Source of the DNA: a virus
Taxonomy: Duplodnaviria > Heunggongvirae > Uroviricota > Caudoviricetes
Virus record (IMG/VR): IMGVR_UViG_2869976549_000001
Reading direction: 5' to 3' (one strand)
Length of the DNA: 39,073 bases
The notes under the pieces are model-generated. The model was given only the letters and a program-made list of their open reading frames with translations, was not told the origin of the DNA and made no database searches. Positions 5,582 to 28,414 of the stretch are shown here, piece by piece (within the stretch, counting starts at the first letter, position 1; each line of letters opens with the position of its first letter). Made by a program: the position numbers and the translations under genes.

Positions 5582-6487
5582 CTATATTTCCAGACATCTG
5601 TTATCACTTAACCCATTACAAGCCCGCTGCCGCAGATATTCCCGTGGCGAGCGATAACCCAGCGCACTATGCGGATGCCATTCGTTATAATGCTCGAACG
5701 CCTCTGCAAGGTTCTTTGCTGCCGTTAACCCGTCTGGTTTGGGCATGATACTGATGTAGTCACGCTTTATCGTTTTCACGAAGCTCTCTGCTATTCCGTT
5801 ACTCTCCGGACTCCGCACCGCCGTGTTCTTCGGTTCAAGTCCCAACATCCGGGCGAACTGGCGTGTTTCATTAGCCCGGTAGCATGAACCATTATCCGTC
5901 AGCCACTCCACTGGAGACGACGGAAGATCGTTGCCGAAGCGGCGTTCCACCGCTCCCAGCATGACGTCCTGTACTGTTTCACTGTTGAAGCCGCCGGTAG
6001 TCACCGCCCAGTGCAGTGCCTCACGATCACAGCAGTCCAGCGCGAACGTGACACGCAGTCTCTCTCCGTTATCACAGCAGAACTCGAACCCGTCAGAGCA
6101 CCATCGCTGATTGCTTTCTTTCACGGCCACTCTGCCTGTATGTGCCCGTTTCGATGGCGGTACAGCAGGTTTTCGCTCAAGCAACAGCGCATTCTGGCGC
6201 ATGATCCGGTAAACACGTTTGGCATTGATCGCAGGCATACCATCAAGTTCTGCCTGTCTGCGAAGCAGCGCCCATACCCGACGATAACCATACGTGGGCA
6301 GCTCTCCGATAACATGGTGTATACGGAGAAGCACATCCGTATCATCAGTGTGACGACTGCGGCGGCCATCCATCCAGTCATCGGTTCGTCTGAGAATGAC
6401 GTGCAACTGCGCACGCGACCCCCGGAGACAACGGCTGACTAAGCTTACTCCCCATCCCCGGGCAATAAGGGCGCGTGCGCTATCCAC
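5582..6487 (-). CDS. insD: IS2 transposase InsD (OrfB)
   Basis: 301-aa ORF, DDE integrase-core motifs; identical to the copy at 14057..14962. Confidence 0.9.
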
Positions 6488-6810
6488 TTTTTTGCCCGTC
6501 CATATTCAACGGCTTCTTTGAGGAGTTCATTTTCCATCGTTTTCTTGCCGAGCAGGCGCTGGAGTTCTTTAATCTGCTTCATGGCGGCAGCAAGTTCAGA
6601 GGCAGGAACAACCTGTTCTCCGGCGGCGACAGCAGTAAGACTTCCTTCCTGGTATTGCTTACGCCAGAGAAATAACTGGCTGGCTGCTACACCATGTTGC
6701 CGGGCAACGAGGGAGACCGTCATCCCCGGTTCAAAGCTCTGCTGAACAATTGCGATCTTTTCCTGTGTGGTACGCCGTCTGCGTTTCTCCGGCCCTAAGA
6801 CATCAATCAT
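6445..6810 (-). CDS. insC: IS2 InsC (OrfA, HTH)
   Basis: 121-aa product from Met [13 protein letters not shown]...; the listed ORF has a 15-aa 5' extension. Confidence 0.85.
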
Positions 6811-6901
6811 CTGTACTCCAATGACTAGTCTAAAAACTAGTATTAAGACTATCACTTATTTAAGTGATACTGGTTGTCTGGAGATTCAGGGGGCCAGTCT
6901 A

Positions 6902-7010: not shown

Positions 7011-7313
7011 ATGAGCAGAAAAACCCAACGTTACTCTAAAGAGTTCAAAGCCGAAGCTGTCAGAACGGTTCCTGAAAATCAACTTTCGATCAGTGAAGGC
7101 GCTTCCCGATTATCTCTTCCTGAAGGCACTTTAGGACAATGGGTTACCGCCGCCAGAAAAGGGCTCGGTACTCCTGGTTCCCGCACGGTGGCTGAACTGG
7201 AATCTGAAATTCTGCAACTGCGTAAGGCGTTAAATGAAGCTCGCCTTGAGCGAGATATATTAAAAAAAGCAACAGCGTATTTTGCACAGGAGTCGCTGAA
7301 AAATACGCGTTAA
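7011..7313 (+). CDS. IS600 transposase OrfA
   Basis: Identical to 1..303. Confidence 0.9.
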   Translation: MSRKTQRYSKEFKAEAVRTVPENQLSISEGASRLSLPEGTLGQWVTAARKGLGTPGSRTVAELESEILQLRKALNEARLERDILKKATAYFAQESLKNTR

Positions 7314-7348
7314 TCGAACAATGGCGACAACAATTTCCCATTGAAGCG

Positions 7349-8167
7349 ATGTGTCAGGTATTTGGTGTATCCAGGAGCGGTTATTACAACTGGGTACAGC
7401 ATGAACCCTCAGACAGAAAACAAAGTGATGAGCGGCTAAAACTGGAGATTAAGGTGGCACATATCCGCACTCGCGAAACATATGGAACCCGGCGGCTCCA
7501 GACGGAGCTGGCAGAGAATGGCATCATCGTTGGTCGTGACCGACTGGCACGTCTTCGTAAGGAGCTAAGGCTACGCTGTAAGCAGAAACGCAAGTTCAGA
7601 GCGACTACGAACTCGAACCACAATCTGCCAGTTGCGCCAAATCTGCTGAACCAGACGTTCGCTCCTACAGCACCAAATCAGGTCTGGGTGGCGGACCTGA
7701 CGTATGTTGCCACACAGGAGGGATGGTTGTACCTCGCTGGCATCAAAGATGTTTATACGTGCGAAATTGTCGGCTACGCCATGGGAGAGCGCATGACAAA
7801 AGAGCTGACAGGTAAAGCCCTGTTTATGGCGCTCAGGAGCCAGCGCCCACCTGCCGGGCTAATCCACCACTCTGATCGAGGTTCACAGTACTGCGCATAC
7901 GATTACCGGGTCATACAGGAGCAGTCTGGTCTGAAAACATCAATGTCGCGTAAAGGTAACTGTTACGACAACGCTCCGATGGAAAGCTTCTGGGGAACGC
8001 TGAAAAATGAGAGCCTGAGCCACTATCGTTTTAATAACCGGGATGAAGCCATCTCAGTAATACGGGAATACATTGAGATTTTCTACAATCGTCAGCGTCG
8101 TCACTCTCGTCTGGGGAATATCTCCCCGGCAGCCTTCAGGGAAAAATATCATCAGATGGCTGCTTAA
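7349..8167 (+). CDS. IS600 transposase OrfB
   Basis: Identical to 339..1157. Confidence 0.9.
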   Translation: MCQVFGVSRSGYYNWVQHEPSDRKQSDERLKLEIKVAHIRTRETYGTRRLQTELAENGIIVGRDRLARLRKELRLRCKQKRKFRATTNSNHNLPVAPNLLNQTFAPTAPNQVWVADLTYVATQEGWLYLAGIKDVYTCEIVGYAMGERMTKELTGKALFMALRSQRPPAGLIHHSDRGSQYCAYDYRVIQEQSGLKTSMSRKGNCYDNAPMESFWGTLKNESLSHYRFNNRDEAISVIREYIEIFYNRQRRHSRLGNISPAAFREKYHQMAA

Positions 8168-19277: not shown

Positions 19278-19453
19278 TGGCACGAAACAAACAAGCCCTG
19301 CGGCGAACTGTGCAGGCCACAGCTGATGGTTATGAGAATTTTATTGCCCGCGTAGGGATGCAGACACCTAACCAGCACTCAGCATCCACCTACCGGGCTA
19401 ATTTCACCAGTCGTAACCGCATGCTGGTGGAATGGTCCTATCGTTCATCCTAA
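19277..19453 (+). pseudogene. Portal gene, 5' segment (58 codons) ending at the TAG that forms the IS630 target
   Basis: ATG overlaps the terminase stop (TGATG); MARNKQALRRTVQATADGYENFIARVGMQTPNQHSASTYRANFTSRNRMLVEWSYRSS then TA(A) at the IS630 junction. Confidence 0.5.
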
Positions 19454-20605
19454 ATAGCTGCGCGGAATAGTAGATCACTTTGAGGGAACTTAGCCCGGAT
19501 TGTGCGATCTGATCAATCGCCAAATCAAAACAAATCACCAACCGGACTGAGCAATGCCGATCATAGCACCAATTTCCCGTGACGAACGACGCCTGATGCA
19601 GAAAGCCATCCATAAAACACACGATAAAAATTATGCCCGCAGACTGACTGCCATGCTGATGCTGCACCGGGGCGACCGTGTCAGCGACGTTGCCAGAACG
19701 CTCTGCTGCGCCCGTTCCTCTGTTGGACGCTGGATTAACTGGTTCACGCAGTCGGGTGTTGAGGGACTGAAATCATTACCTGCCGGGCGTGCCCGTCGCT
19801 GGCCGTTTGAGCATATCTGCACACTGTTACGTGAGCTGGTAAAACATTCTCCCGGCGACTTTGGCTACCAGCGTTCACGCTGGAGTACAGAACTGCTGGC
19901 AATAAAAATCAATGAGATAACCGGTTGCCAGTTAAATGCCGGAACCGTTCGCCGCTGGTTGCCGTCTGCGGGGATTGTGTGGCGAAGGGCTGCGCCAACT
20001 CTGCGTATCCGTGACCCGCATAAAGATGAAAAGATGGCAGCAATCCATAAAGCACTGGACGAATGCAGCGCAGAGCATCCGGTCTTTTATGAAGATGAAG
20101 TGGATATCCATCTTAATCCCAAAATCGGTGCGGACTGGCAACTGCGCGGACAGCAAAAACGGGTGGTCACGCCGGGACAGAATGAAAAATATTATCTGGC
20201 CGGAGCGCTGCACAGCGGGACAGGTAAAGTCAGCTGTGTGGGCGGCAACAGCAAAAGTTCGGCGCTGTTCATCAGCCTGCTGAAGCGGCTTAAAGCGACA
20301 TACCGTCGGGCGAAAACCATCACGCTGATCGTGGACAACTACATTATCCACAAAAGCCGGGAAACACAGAGCTGGCTGAAGGAGAACCCGAAGTTCAGGG
20401 TCATTTATCAGCCGGTTTACTCGCCATGGGTGAATCATGTTGAACGGCTATGGCAGGCACTTCACGACACAATAACGCGTAATCATCAGTGCAGCTCAAT
20501 GTGGCAACTGTTGAAAAAAGTTCGCCATTTTATGGAAACCGTCAGCCCATTCCCCGGAGGCAAACATGGGCTGGCAAAAGTGTAGCGGTATTAAGCGCAG
20601 CTATT
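19453..20605 (+). mobile_element. IS630, 1153 bp, with TA target duplication inside a CTAG site
   Basis: Terminal inverted repeats AAATAGCTGCGC at 19453 and rc at 20605; TA at 19451-19452 and 20606-20607; pre-insertion target reads CCTAGA. Confidence 0.88.
19554..20585 (+). CDS. IS630 transposase
   Basis: 343-aa ORF, Tc1/IS630-family DDE transposase. Confidence 0.88.
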   Translation: MPIIAPISRDERRLMQKAIHKTHDKNYARRLTAMLMLHRGDRVSDVARTLCCARSSVGRWINWFTQSGVEGLKSLPAGRARRWPFEHICTLLRELVKHSPGDFGYQRSRWSTELLAIKINEITGCQLNAGTVRRWLPSAGIVWRRAAPTLRIRDPHKDEKMAAIHKALDECSAEHPVFYEDEVDIHLNPKIGADWQLRGQQKRVVTPGQNEKYYLAGALHSGTGKVSCVGGNSKSSALFISLLKRLKATYRRAKTITLIVDNYIIHKSRETQSWLKENPKFRVIYQPVYSPWVNHVERLWQALHDTITRNHQCSSMWQLLKKVRHFMETVSPFPGGKHGLAKV

Positions 20606-23759: not shown

Positions 23760-24266
23760 ATGAATAATGTATTTCTGTACCGGATGCCTGTTGGCATTGC
23801 CGGGGCTGTCTCTCGCCCGCAGGACTTAACCGTCGAACCGGTGGTCCTTAAATCCGATAACGCCTTCGCTGCCTATGGCCTGGCTGGTAAATACGATGAT
23901 GACGGTTTTTTCGTGCCGCTGGCAGATGGTGATACCGCAGACAAGGTGAAGGGGATCTACGTGCGCCCTTATCCGACCACGTCGCAGCCGGACATGGTTC
24001 GCCAGGTGGGAACAGGCAAGAACTTCCCGGGCGACGCCATGAAGCGTGGCTACGTGACCGTTAATCTCGGTTCTGATTTTGATGCCAGCACTATCAAAAA
24101 AGGCGATCCGGTATACGTTGTCGTCTCCACTGATGAATCCATCAAAGTGCCGCTGGGTGGATTCATGTCCACGTCAGTCAGTGGCAAAAACGTGGTGCTG
24201 ACCAACGCTGAATTCACAGGTGCCGGTGATGCTGACGGCAATGCAGAAATTTCCTGGAAGATTTAA
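23760..24266 (+). CDS. Phage head structural protein (possible decoration protein)
   Basis: 168-aa ORF 3 bp after the scaffold gene; followed 15 bp later by IS1. Confidence 0.4.
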   Translation: MNNVFLYRMPVGIAGAVSRPQDLTVEPVVLKSDNAFAAYGLAGKYDDDGFFVPLADGDTADKVKGIYVRPYPTTSQPDMVRQVGTGKNFPGDAMKRGYVTVNLGSDFDASTIKKGDPVYVVVSTDESIKVPLGGFMSTSVSGKNVVLTNAEFTGAGDADGNAEISWKI

Positions 24267-24336
24267 GGAACAGACGAATGAGGTGATGCTGCCAACTTAC
24301 TGATTTAGTGTATGATGGTGTTTTTGAGGTGCTCCA

Positions 24337-24612
24337 GTGGCTTCTGTTTCTATCAGCTGTCCCTCCTGTTCAGCTACTGACGGGGTGGTGCGTAACGGCA
24401 AAAGCACTGCAGGACATCAGCGCTATCTCTGCTCTCACTGCCGTAAAACATGGCAACTGCAGTTCACTTACACCGCTTCTTAACCCGGTACGCACCAGAA
24501 AATCATTGATATGGCCATGAATGGCGTTGGATGCCGGGCAACTGCACGCATTATGGGCGTTGGCCTCAACACGATTTTACGTCACTTAAAAAACTCAGGC
24601 CGCAGTCGGTAA
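24337..24612 (+). pseudogene. insA: IS1 insA with in-frame TAA at codon 49
   Basis: GTG start, [22 protein letters not shown]... then GCT TCT TAA (24481-24483) where a sense codon is expected; frame otherwise intact to the normal stop. Confidence 0.7.
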
Positions 24613-25034
24613 CCTCGCGCATACAGCCGGGCAGTGACGTCATCGTCTGCGCGGAAATGGACGAACAGTGGGGCTATGTCGGGGCTAAATCGCGCCAGCG
24701 CTGGCTGTTTTACGCGTATGACAGTCTCCGGAAGACGGTTGTTGCGCACGTATTCGGTGAACGCACTATGGCGACGCTGGGGCGTCTTATGAGCCTGCTG
24801 TCACCCTTTGACGTGGTGATATGGATGACGGATGGCTGGCCGCTGTATGAATCCCGCCTGAAGGGAAAGCTGCACGTAATCAGCAAGCGATATACGCAGC
24901 GAATTGAGCGGCATAACCTGAATCTGAGGCAGCACCTGGCACGGCTGGGACGGAAGTCGCTGTCGTTCTCAAAATCGGTGGAGCTGCATGACAAAGTCAT
25001 CGGGCATTATCTGAACATAAAACACTATCAATAA
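24531..25034 (+). CDS. insB: IS1 InsB frame (167 aa)
   Basis: Full-length InsB-frame ORF; A-run frameshift window upstream. Confidence 0.8.
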
Positions 25035-25065
25035 GTTGGAGTCATTACCAACAGGGGGATTTACC

Positions 25066-25197
25066 ATGCTTATTGGCTATGTACGCGTATCAACAAATGA
25101 CCAGAATACCGATCTACAACGTAATGCGTTTATTTGTGCCGGAAGTGAGTTGATTGTTGAGCGAATGGGAAGTTGGCCAGAAGTTGTTATGGCATAG
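25066..25197 (+). pseudogene. Serine recombinase (Pin/Hin-type DNA invertase) N-terminal remnant
   Basis: MLIGYVRVSTNDQNTDLQRNAF (catalytic Ser motif) then degenerates and stops after 43 codons; begins 16 bp after the IS1 end. Confidence 0.6.
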
Positions 25198-25447
25198 TGT
25201 TTACGGTCGTTGATACAGGTAAACAAAAGCGGGGAGAGTCATACTCCCTGAATAGTCGCGAAAATATCTGTGGCATTGTCAAATTCGTGTCGGTGACTAA
25301 TATTTTAGTAATATGCCATTCGAAATGGAGTGCTAACTTATTGATTTAATTGATGTGCGATATTGTATTTTATCGTGTTTTGTTGTCTGTTTTTTATCCA
25401 GTAAGTGTTGTTATGTGTATGAAAGATAAGGGATTTATCATTTTTGA

Positions 25448-26452
<1,005 letters not shown>

Positions 26453-26492
26453 CCGCTGATTTACCCGGCGCAGTCTCTCCTGCGCCGGTGTA

Positions 26493-27446
26493 TTAACCTA
26501 TCTCCTGTAACGCATGTCTCTGGCGTTCGACGATATTGGTCCACAAATTGTCTTTATCGTCAGTCCACAAATTAATCAGCAAGGCAAAAAAGCGTTCTGC
26601 TGCCGGAGAAAGCACGGCATCTTTGCGGCGAATAATCCCCAATGTCCGACGTATAACGGGTTCCACCAGTGGAATACCAATAATCGAAGAATAGGGCGCA
26701 TGGGGCATTGCCAGACCAGGAAGCGCCGAAATCCCCAGTCCCGCCTCTACCAGTCCTAATGACGTCGAAAGATGACGCACTTCGTAAAACCAGTCCAGCT
26801 TCCAGGGCTTGTCGGCCAGCTGTTGTTCTATCAACAGTCGGTTGCCGCTGGAGGAGCGTACGCCAATCATTTTGTAACCCACTAACTCCTGCCATTCTAC
26901 AAGCTGCTTTTTGGCCAATGGATGGTCACGCCGACAGGCCAGCACGAACGGCTCGTTGACCAGTGGGGTAAAATCAATGGATGAATTTGTGACGTTGTTC
27001 ATGTTTATGCCAAAGTCTGATTCGTTACACAGCACCGATTCCATGCAATTATTCGTGCCTTGTTCCAGAATCCGCACTTTAATATTGGGATACAGCTCAT
27101 TAAATTTACCGATTGCCAGCGGTAAAAAATAAAATACTGCGGTCGGAATACACGCTAACGTCACCATACCACGATGATAAGCATTCATATCACGAATATT
27201 AAAAAGCGTTTCATCGAATTTCTTTATTAATTCCCGCGCCTCCGGGAGCAACCTTTTTCCTGCTTTTGTTAACGTAACCTTGCGAGTTGTACGCTCAAAT
27301 AGTTGAATATGTAAATCTTCCTCCATCTTTTTTATTCTTCGCGTTAATGCAGGTTGCGTAATATTGAGTAATTTAGCGGCATTGTTAAACGAACTGGACT
27401 CTGCCAGTATGACAAATGCCTTCATACTTGATAATTCATGCTTCAT
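26493..27446 (-). CDS. ybhD: LysR-family transcriptional regulator YbhD
   Basis: N-terminal LysR HTH (MKAFVILAESSSFNNAAKLLNITQPALTRRIKKMEE) and substrate-binding domain; divergent from pgl as in E. coli. The listed ORF has a 21-aa 5' extension. Confidence 0.85.
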   Translation of the reverse strand: MKHELSSMKAFVILAESSSFNNAAKLLNITQPALTRRIKKMEEDLHIQLFERTTRKVTLTKAGKRLLPEARELIKKFDETLFNIRDMNAYHRGMVTLACIPTAVFYFLPLAIGKFNELYPNIKVRILEQGTNNCMESVLCNESDFGINMNNVTNSSIDFTPLVNEPFVLACRRDHPLAKKQLVEWQELVGYKMIGVRSSSGNRLLIEQQLADKPWKLDWFYEVRHLSTSLGLVEAGLGISALPGLAMPHAPYSSIIGIPLVEPVIRRTLGIIRRKDAVLSPAAERFFALLINLWTDDKDNLWTNIVERQRHALQEIG

Positions 27447-27646: not shown

Positions 27647-28414
27647 GGTAATGACTCCAACTTATTGATAGTGTTTTATGTTCAGATAATGCCCGATGGC
27701 TTTGTCATGCAGCTCCACCGATTTTGAGAACGACAGCGACTTCCGTCCCAGCCGTGCCAGGTGCTGCCTCAGATTCAGGTTATGCCGCTCAATTCGCTGC
27801 GTATATCGCTTGCTGATTACGTGCAGCTTTCCCTTCAGGCGGGATTCATACAGCGGCCAGCCATCCGTCATCCATATCACCACGTCAAAGGGTGACAGCA
27901 GGCTCATAAGACGCCCCAGCGTCGCCATAGTGCGTTCACCGAATACGTGCGCAACAACCGTCTTCCGGAGACTGTCATACGCGTAAAACAGCCAGCGCTG
28001 GCGCGATTTAGCCCCGACATAGCCCCACTGTTCGTCCATTTCCGCGCAGACGATGACGTCACTGCCCGGCTGTATGCGCGAGGTTACCGACTGCGGCCTG
28101 AGTTTTTTAAGTGACGTAAAATCGTGTTGAGGCCAACGCCCATAATGCGTGCAGTTGCCCGGCATCCAACGCCATTCATGGCCATATCAATGATTTTCTG
28201 GTGCGTACCGGGTTAAGAAGCGGTGTAAGTGAACTGCAGTTGCCATGTTTTACGGCAGTGAGAGCAGAGATAGCGCTGATGTCCTGCAGTGCTTTTGCCG
28301 TTACGCACCACCCCGTCAGTAGCTGAACAGGAGGGACAGCTGATAGAAACAGAAGCCACTGGAGCACCTCAAAAACACCATCATACACTAAATCAGTAAG
28401 TTGGCAGCATCACC
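27647..28414 (-). mobile_element. IS1, copy B, 768 bp, inverted relative to copy A; no target-site duplication
   Basis: rc of IS1 termini at 27647 and 28414; flanks AATACCCTG / CAAAAAAGG differ; carries the same insA TAA (28213-28215). Confidence 0.9.
27662..28165 (-). CDS. insB: IS1 InsB frame
   Basis: 167-aa ORF, identical to copy A except one residue. Confidence 0.8.

Follow-up and report, generated by a model that had tools for sequence, protein, structure and literature searches.

A nonsense codon common to two neighbouring IS1 copies of Shigella sonnei, probably written into one from the other by gene conversion

IS1A-type elements of E. coli and Shigella are 768 bp long, end in imperfect 23-bp inverted repeats and encode a transposase with a Zn ribbon, an HTH and a DDE_Tnp_IS1 domain, the reading frames of which meet at an A6C motif. 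IS1 forms composite transposons, such as the IS1-flanked Tn9 and Tn1681, and causes intramolecular replicative inversions. Gene conversion among (non-functional) IS copies is reportedly the subject, by its title, of a study of Wolbachia by Cordaux (Mol Biol Evol 26:1679, 2009; cited in PMC3205602). The process has also been discussed for IS copies of Amoebophilus (PMC3196728). The pair of IS1 copies described here resembles those of Wolbachia and Amoebophilus in that sequence appears to have passed non-reciprocally between paralogues without transposition, a process that can propagate or maintain defective alleles; it differs from them in that the strains compared are nearly identical, so that one individual event can be seen and its donor, recipient and tract limits can be named. 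With regard to movement, IS1 transposase acts mainly in cis, and other copies have been mobilised only under strong over-production (PMC12903888). IS copies abound in Shigella, the reference chromosomes of which hold 229-348 IS insertions, with an IS1 share of 46-73% (PMC7373316).

The window, by which we mean the whole stretch of 39,073 nucleotides analysed here, is by its sequence IS-dense chromosomal DNA of S. sonnei. Three bases excepted, 18,259 bp of it agree fully with CP022457.1, the accession of S. sonnei 2015C-3566 (PMC6456863). It also carries ipaH, IS600, IS2 and IS630. Four pairs of 100-aa and 272-aa ORFs, one of them truncated (1-1157, 7011-8167, 9947-10662 and 33073-34229), are presumably IS600, and two pairs of 136-aa and 301-aa ORFs (5582-6855 and 14057-15330) are taken by us to be IS2, in both cases on the basis of ORF sizes. 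An IS630-family element of 1,153 bp (19453-20605, with the transposase ORF at 19554-20585; NCBIfam match) lies in a prophage remnant and is absent from the otherwise identical CP151292.1, and is therefore a strain-private insertion. An IpaH-family effector gene of 587 aa (36252-38015; NCBIfam match) adjoins phage tail-fibre remnants.

Two complete IS1 copies of 768 bp, called IS-L (24282-25049, plus strand, IS1A type) and IS-R (27647-28414, minus strand) in the following, form an inverted repeat with 2,597 bp in between. A single base sets them apart, namely IS1 nt 716, with T in IS-L (24997, plus strand) and C in IS-R (27699, minus strand), the latter resulting in V221A in InsAB'. As in other members of the family, elements of approximately 768 bp are bounded by imperfect inverted repeats of approximately 23 bp (GGTGATGCTGCCAACTTACTGAT / GGTAATGACTCCAACTTATTGAT). 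In IS-L, both of these are intact on the plus strand, the IRL (24282-24304) as an exact 23-mer match and the IRR (25027-25049) as read from the sequence, with the same IRR in IS-R. The A6C (AAAAAAC) -1 frameshift motif at IS1 nt 307-313 is likewise intact, at 24588-24594 (plus strand) in IS-L and, by a coordinate derived from the IS1 numbering, at 28102-28108 (minus strand) in IS-R. The insB ORF of 167 aa, which encodes the DDE part, is open in IS-L (24531-25034, plus strand) and in IS-R (27662-28165, minus strand), and the InsB protein of IS-L is found unchanged in many S. sonnei IS1 copies. In both elements, insA leads through A6C into insB' in the -1 frame, giving the InsAB' fusion typical of the family; conceptual InsAB' of IS-L comprises the Zn ribbon (PF03811, residues 1-36), the HTH domain (PF12759, 43-86) and DDE_Tnp_IS1 (PF03400, 102-232) in Pfam. 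Overall, IS-L agrees with annotated E. coli IS1A-family copies at 766 of 768 bases (99.7% identity). What distinguishes the window copies from that type is a stop codon in insA (Q49*), the lack of target-site duplications and, for IS-R, its position at the border of a deletion from ybhH to ybhJ'.

The insA frames of IS-L (24337-24612, plus strand) and IS-R (28359-28084, minus strand) both have TAA in the place of CAA (Gln) at codon 49. These codons lie at 24481-24483 (plus strand), where the change is C>T at IS1 nt 200, and at 28213-28215 (minus strand); both coordinates, given in a preliminary description of this DNA, were confirmed by translation. The IS1 reference used there proved correct at this codon, as intact IS1A-type copies have CAA (e.g., L011, with an annotated 232-aa transposase and programmed frameshift), and the neighbouring difference at nt 130 is synonymous, as stated there (GCC>GCA, Ala25). 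In IS-R, this nt 130 A (28285, minus strand) is a lineage marker linked to the TAA. When insA is joined to insB' at A6C, InsAB' of IS-L equals the intact 232-aa transposase of E. coli CRE1540 except for Q49*, and that of IS-R departs from an intact 232-aa IS1A-type transposase by Q49* and V221A. Codon 49 is located past the Zn ribbon (1-36) and within the HTH domain (43-86), and the truncated insA of IS-L (24337-24483, plus strand) consists of a GTG start and 48 codons, with the Zn ribbon only, ahead of the TAA. Hence, neither copy has the uninterrupted insA and insAB' of an autonomous IS1. Each is predicted to produce a 48-residue Zn-ribbon fragment only, and neither the InsA repressor nor the InsAB' transposase; in the part of PMC12903888 that cites Ohta 2004, the zinc-finger and HTH motifs are both reported to be necessary for binding of IS1 ends. 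The earlier view that InsA and InsAB' cannot be made by either copy is thus borne out for the full-length proteins, since Q49* is the sole defect relative to the intact 232-aa transposase and PGAP annotates an 'internal stop' for the same allele in E. coli. Since nothing is wrong with their inverted repeats, frameshift site or insB frame, IS-L and IS-R are, in terms of their coding potential, single-hit pseudogenes one nucleotide short of function.

The segment between the two copies (25457-27446) is native DNA, with pgl (25457-26452, plus strand) and ybhD (26493-27446, minus strand) in E. coli order and orientation, and located next to ybhJ-ybhC as in E. coli. IS-R is bordered on one side by codon 6 of ybhH and on the other by a 5'-truncated ybhJ (28415-30581, plus strand) that adjoins its IRL; ybhH, ybhI and the start of ybhJ, present in E. 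coli, are deleted there. Further along, the ybhJ-ybhC intergenic region (30596-30762) contains a pair of direct repeats of 74 nt each, with 92% identity and a spacing of 93 nt, which we take to resemble REP/BIME-type palindromic units. IS-L borders a prophage remnant and, on its other side, a 43-codon resolvase/invertase remnant upstream of pgl (ORF 25066-25194), identified by a weak, below-threshold match to the Resolvase N-terminus (PF00239). In the stretch between IS-L and pgl (25050-25456), E. coli homology begins just 3 nt ahead of the pgl start codon; the native pgl upstream region must therefore have been lost, with prophage DNA replacing ybhA-modC. On the prophage side, a 168-aa 'Phage_cement' gene (23760-24281) precedes IS-L, and in intact prophage relatives (L042, L044-L047 and L049) the next gene is that of a 313-aa major capsid protein. 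Since IS-L is placed in S. sonnei exactly where this capsid gene would start, it marks the point of prophage truncation. An 8-9 bp target-site duplication was found neither in the flanks of IS-L (GACGAATGA / AACAGGGGG) nor in those of IS-R (CCTTTTTTG / CAGGGTATT), an absence compatible with both copies having later undergone deletions or rearrangements. We also compared the flanks with what a simple insertion, a composite transposon or an IS1 duplicative inversion would produce, and none of the three patterns holds.

Orthologous loci were found through exact-sequence look-up of the window proteins, and the sample is what these look-ups returned, namely 14 S. sonnei assemblies with a few dozen IS1 copies. 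A full-length IS-L is present in 13 assemblies (L027-L035, L038, L040, L041 and L043), and codon 49 is CAA in all 13; in the additional one, L036, both IS1 copies are internally deleted. Ten of the 13 have 194T/200C in IS-L, and L028, L034 and L043 have 194G/200C. The IS-R site was found in several allelic states: 130A/200T/716C, identical to IS-R of the window, in L030, L032, L033 and L038; 130C/200T in L028 and L034; and 130C/176A/200C, with an open frame, in L027, L029, L031 and L035. As far as these assemblies indicate, the insertion sites of IS-L and IS-R are fixed across S. sonnei and vertically inherited.

Comparison of the window with its closest relatives narrows the differences to a few bases. 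Against L030 and L033, only 24411 (A/C), 24475 (G/T) and 24481 (T/C) differ in 18,259 bp; against L032, these three bases are joined by 34168, 34317 and 35049, all outside IS1; against L038 (CP151292.1), they are the differences in 20.1 kb, together with the window-private IS630 insertion; and against L040, they differ over 3.1 kb. CP151292.1, the IS-L of which is intact, also shares an identical 6.1-kb stretch with the window. The junctions at the IS-L site are those of the sister strains, and the locus is collinear.

In IS1 numbering, the three bases are nt 130 (C>A), 194 (T>G) and 200 (C>T), and they delimit the minimal conversion tract in IS-L (24411-24481, plus strand). All three changes, within 71 bp, give the state of IS-R, and nt 716 stays T. 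This is the pattern expected of gene conversion, with clustered donor-state substitutions bounded by an unconverted position, a recipient that the event leaves in place with its junctions unaltered, and a donor left unchanged, as IS-R of the window is identical to IS-R of L030, L032, L033 and L038. The tract would measure 71-715 bp, with nt 130-200 as its minimum, a start at nt 1 or later and an end before nt 716, the 3' bound. Given that the site already held an open IS-L and that the nt 716 marker persists, the TAA appears to have been copied in, not transposed. We consider it probable that the shared TAA results from non-reciprocal ectopic gene conversion between fixed neighbouring IS1 copies, from IS-R into IS-L.

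The direction of change is clear from the distribution of alleles among the strain groups. At a flanking SNP (26328), C is found in the E. coli outgroup and also in L028 and L034, and T in the window and the other groups; this T is therefore derived. IS-R of the window shares with the L030 group the derived A at nt 130, and 194T in IS-L is common to two strain groups that differ in IS-R, one of which is without nt 130 A in IS-R. The presence of 194T/200C in ten assemblies across IS-R groups, combined with outgroup rooting, thus makes the IS-L state of the window the derived one. Accordingly ordered, the events may be reconstructed as follows. IS-R would have gained the C>T nonsense change (Q49*, nt 200), followed later by C>A at nt 130, which is synonymous and linked to it; each of these states is seen at that site in other S. 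sonnei. In the window lineage, a tract of 71-715 bp from IS-R would then have overwritten the IS-L allele 130C/194T/200C, disabling a second transposase gene, presumably by RecA-dependent strand invasion or by template switching between the nearby inverted repeats. The donor was probably IS-R, and an unseen third copy with 130A/200T at another place in the genome might instead have been the source. Two successive reciprocal crossovers (inversion and re-inversion) were also considered and ruled out, since IS-R did not receive 130C/194T/200C from IS-L. Among the loci returned by look-ups via the neighbouring phage gene and others, there was no second independent assembly with a converted IS-L, which is seen in the window only. 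An event of this kind adds one more case to a process already described, in an element that is equally well known, and is ordinary in a repeat-rich genome.

We then considered how common the TAA allele is in other IS1 copies. The exact 71-mer with TAA was found in 7 of 8,771 IS1-bearing records (5,426 complete E. coli genomes) and in 2 of at least 5,000 plasmid records, and a search for nt 130 A linked to TAA returned no full-length exact match in E. coli. The same C>T at nt 200, resulting in TAA at codon 49, is present in E. coli RefSeq IS1 pseudogenes (e.g., MLI104K1, CT30, EPSSH018 and plasmid pHH194M-140K). The E. coli TAA copies inspected lie at unrelated sites, at least three in number, and PGAP labels the alleles inspected as pseudogenes, 'programmed frameshift; internal stop'. 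The two that were compared lie on IS1 backgrounds other than that of the S. sonnei allele, with 6-10 differences from the window copy. As backgrounds and sites differ, the mutation is recurrent in E. coli and does not reflect common descent with the S. sonnei allele, so that C>T at nt 200 is, as judged from these records, a rare, recurrent and ordinary null mutation. IS-L and IS-R of the window, having two rare derived states in common (130A and 200T), are therefore not independent of each other. The 13 IS1 copies sampled elsewhere in related genomes (L017-L026) are without exception 130C/200C and equal IS-L minus its two mutations, bar occasional single changes; the null allele is consequently not the one that IS1 commonly has in this species.

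Wider scans returned little. An exact-pattern scan with a TAA 45-mer found no match in GTDB species representatives, JGI metagenome contigs and IMG/VR, where S. sonnei chromosomes of this lineage are probably absent. A scan for nt 130 A in species-representative genomes gave a single match, at a contig end of Kluyvera cryocrescens NBRC 102467 (L016, 1838-1875), presumably an independent occurrence. Moreover, the protein collection lists a 48-aa 'truncated InsA' in 1,748 blocks. In nine of the ten such calls inspected, the frame ends where Ns fill a gap at IS1 nt 200-201 of scaffolded drafts (L002-L010; e.g., L002, 3001-3146), the contigs of which reach approximately 200 nt into IS1 and end by coincidence exactly at codon 49. 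We therefore rejected the 48-aa protein count as a measure of the spread of the TAA allele, as these nine are scaffold-gap artefacts and not TAA.

The preliminary description had combined a functional reading, according to which neither copy makes InsA or InsAB', with an evolutionary one, in which the copies had probably been mobilised in trans or were relics of one defective lineage; the former is supported and the latter is not. Transposition of a defective Q49* IS1 by InsAB' of other IS1 copies, leaving two daughters of one lineage, could draw on the intact IRL and IRR of both elements, on the activity in trans of over-produced InsAB' on immobile IS1 copies and miniIS1 (PMC12903888), and on the IS1 richness of Shigella chromosomes, as given above (PMC7373316). 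However, the IS-L site is held, with the same junctions, by a full-length CAA copy in 13 other S. sonnei assemblies; IS-L of the window retains its site-specific nt 716 T; the sister strains differ only at the 71-bp cluster of IS-R-state bases; the allele is absent from all 13 IS1 copies sampled at other sites in related genomes; and both copies lack a target-site duplication. In addition, IS1 transposase at native levels has little activity in trans (PMC12903888). We thus regard this account as very unlikely, and transposition of a defective copy as the origin of the pair is excluded by the allele comparison. As the ends are intact, mobilisation in trans is possible in principle, although nothing here shows that it occurred, and with a mainly cis-acting transposase it would be unlikely at native levels. 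In this respect, IS-L and IS-R resemble miniIS1 and the 'non-consensus' immobile IS1 copies (PMC12903888), which also combine intact ends with no transposase of their own and are in-principle substrates in trans, but IS-L and IS-R stand at fixed orthologous sites with no sign of movement. An inverted IS1 pair bracketing a segment of 2.6 kb also recalls Tn9 and Tn1681, in which two IS1 bracket a short segment, and might be read as a composite transposon IS1-pgl-ybhD-IS1, or as the product of IS1 duplicative inversion, with both ends derived from one parent. Nevertheless, the passenger here is native DNA in its native place, pgl-ybhD having the E. coli position and orientation beside ybhJ-ybhC, whereas an IS1 composite transposon has a foreign passenger and a flanking target duplication. 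No 8-9 bp duplication surrounds the unit, the outer flanks of which (GACGAATGA and CAAAAAAGG) are unrelated, the flanks are without the relationships expected of duplicative inversion, and sister strains show this architecture too, with IS1 alleles that differ between the two ends. Such an origin is extremely improbable.

Other readings accept the two sites as fixed and question the change itself. An artefact of assembly or polishing, in which IS-L is really 130C/194T/200C and three bases were mis-called from IS-R reads, deserves attention, as the converted IS-L is known from a single sequence and repeats are a classic place of consensus errors. It is unlikely, since mis-polishing by multi-mapped reads should favour the majority 130C/200C allele and not an allele of one copy, the change forms a clean contiguous tract in a locus of which the remaining 18-20 kb are identical to four other assemblies, and IS-L, with just 768 bp and unique flanks, is easily spanned by long reads. 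Parallel point mutations, by which TAA, nt 130 A and nt 194 G would have arisen independently in both copies, have a precedent in that C>T at nt 200 arose independently on at least two other E. coli IS1 backgrounds, at no fewer than three distinct sites. Yet the allele is very rare (7 of 8,771 records), and a threefold match to the paralogue that is confined to 71 bp, when about 20 kb show no further difference, is extremely improbable; by our own arithmetic from the sister-strain comparisons, the rough odds of three independent paralogue-base substitutions in one 71-bp stretch of approximately 20 kb are of the order of 1e-6 to 1e-7, and we consider the possibility negligible. Finally, the allele might be functional, whether by read-through or bypass, by a restart at Met59 or Met61 resulting in HTH-only InsA or InsAB', or through selection for a regulatory 48-aa Zn-ribbon peptide. 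Points in its favour are in-frame ATGs located 27-33 nt past the TAA, a match to the HTH domain that the 33-aa tail still gives, and the retention of the TAA at IS-R by several S. sonnei groups. Against this, the portion of PMC12903888 concerned, citing Ohta 2004, reports that end binding requires zinc finger and HTH together; by eye, no Shine-Dalgarno-like sequence is seen ahead of the internal ATGs; PGAP calls a pseudogene for this allele; no selection is needed for a fixed IS copy to keep a neutral null allele; and some strains have CAA at IS-R. We consider a functional allele highly improbable, and gene conversion from IS-R into IS-L remains our preferred explanation.

The IS-R site may have a more complex history of its own. 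IS-R of L027, L029, L031 and L035 (locus 13685-14452) has CAA together with nt 176 A (L41M), a variant also present in an IS1 elsewhere (L023, 3752-4519), which suggests a second conversion, at the IS-R site, having repaired the stop codon. IS-R of L034 (CP179990.1; 13685-14452) has 200T with 643T/716T, and the 643T/716T pair also occurs in IS1 copies of L018 and L020; this allele looks like another mosaic and fits recurrent conversion. Altogether, the mosaic IS-R alleles (176A/200C, 643T/716T in L034 and 130A/200T) hint at recurrent conversion at this site, although the history of IS-R, with TAA either ancestral and repaired in the 176A group or gained repeatedly, rests on few informative characters. 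In L036 (CP029794.1, an assembly of 4.54 Mb), both IS1 copies have internal deletions of approximately 300 bp, near mirror images of each other and corresponding to 24494-24811 and 27900-28203 of the window; these could be a real paired deletion or an artefact of repeat collapse.

With regard to annotation, IS-L and IS-R should read as pseudogenes, i.e., non-autonomous copies with intact ends. These ends would be usable substrates for the transposase of other IS1 copies and for homologous recombination, and further conversion from any intact IS1 copy could repair IS-L and IS-R; as IS1 is abundant in Shigella chromosomes, donors for further conversion, repair included, are abundant as well. We consider it very unlikely that conversion is a quantitatively important, possibly biased route by which null alleles are spread or purged among the more than 100 IS1 of Shigella, or that the 48-residue fragment is a trans-dominant modulator; if the conversion route were true, conversion and transposition would together determine the active IS1 load of a lineage. 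The finding has little importance beyond bookkeeping, and is a tidy, well-bounded natural example. It is relevant to the use of IS SNP markers in Shigella typing and to inferring IS activity or 'lineages' from copy sequences, as identical defects in neighbouring IS copies need not imply transposition of a defective element; gene conversion can write them in.
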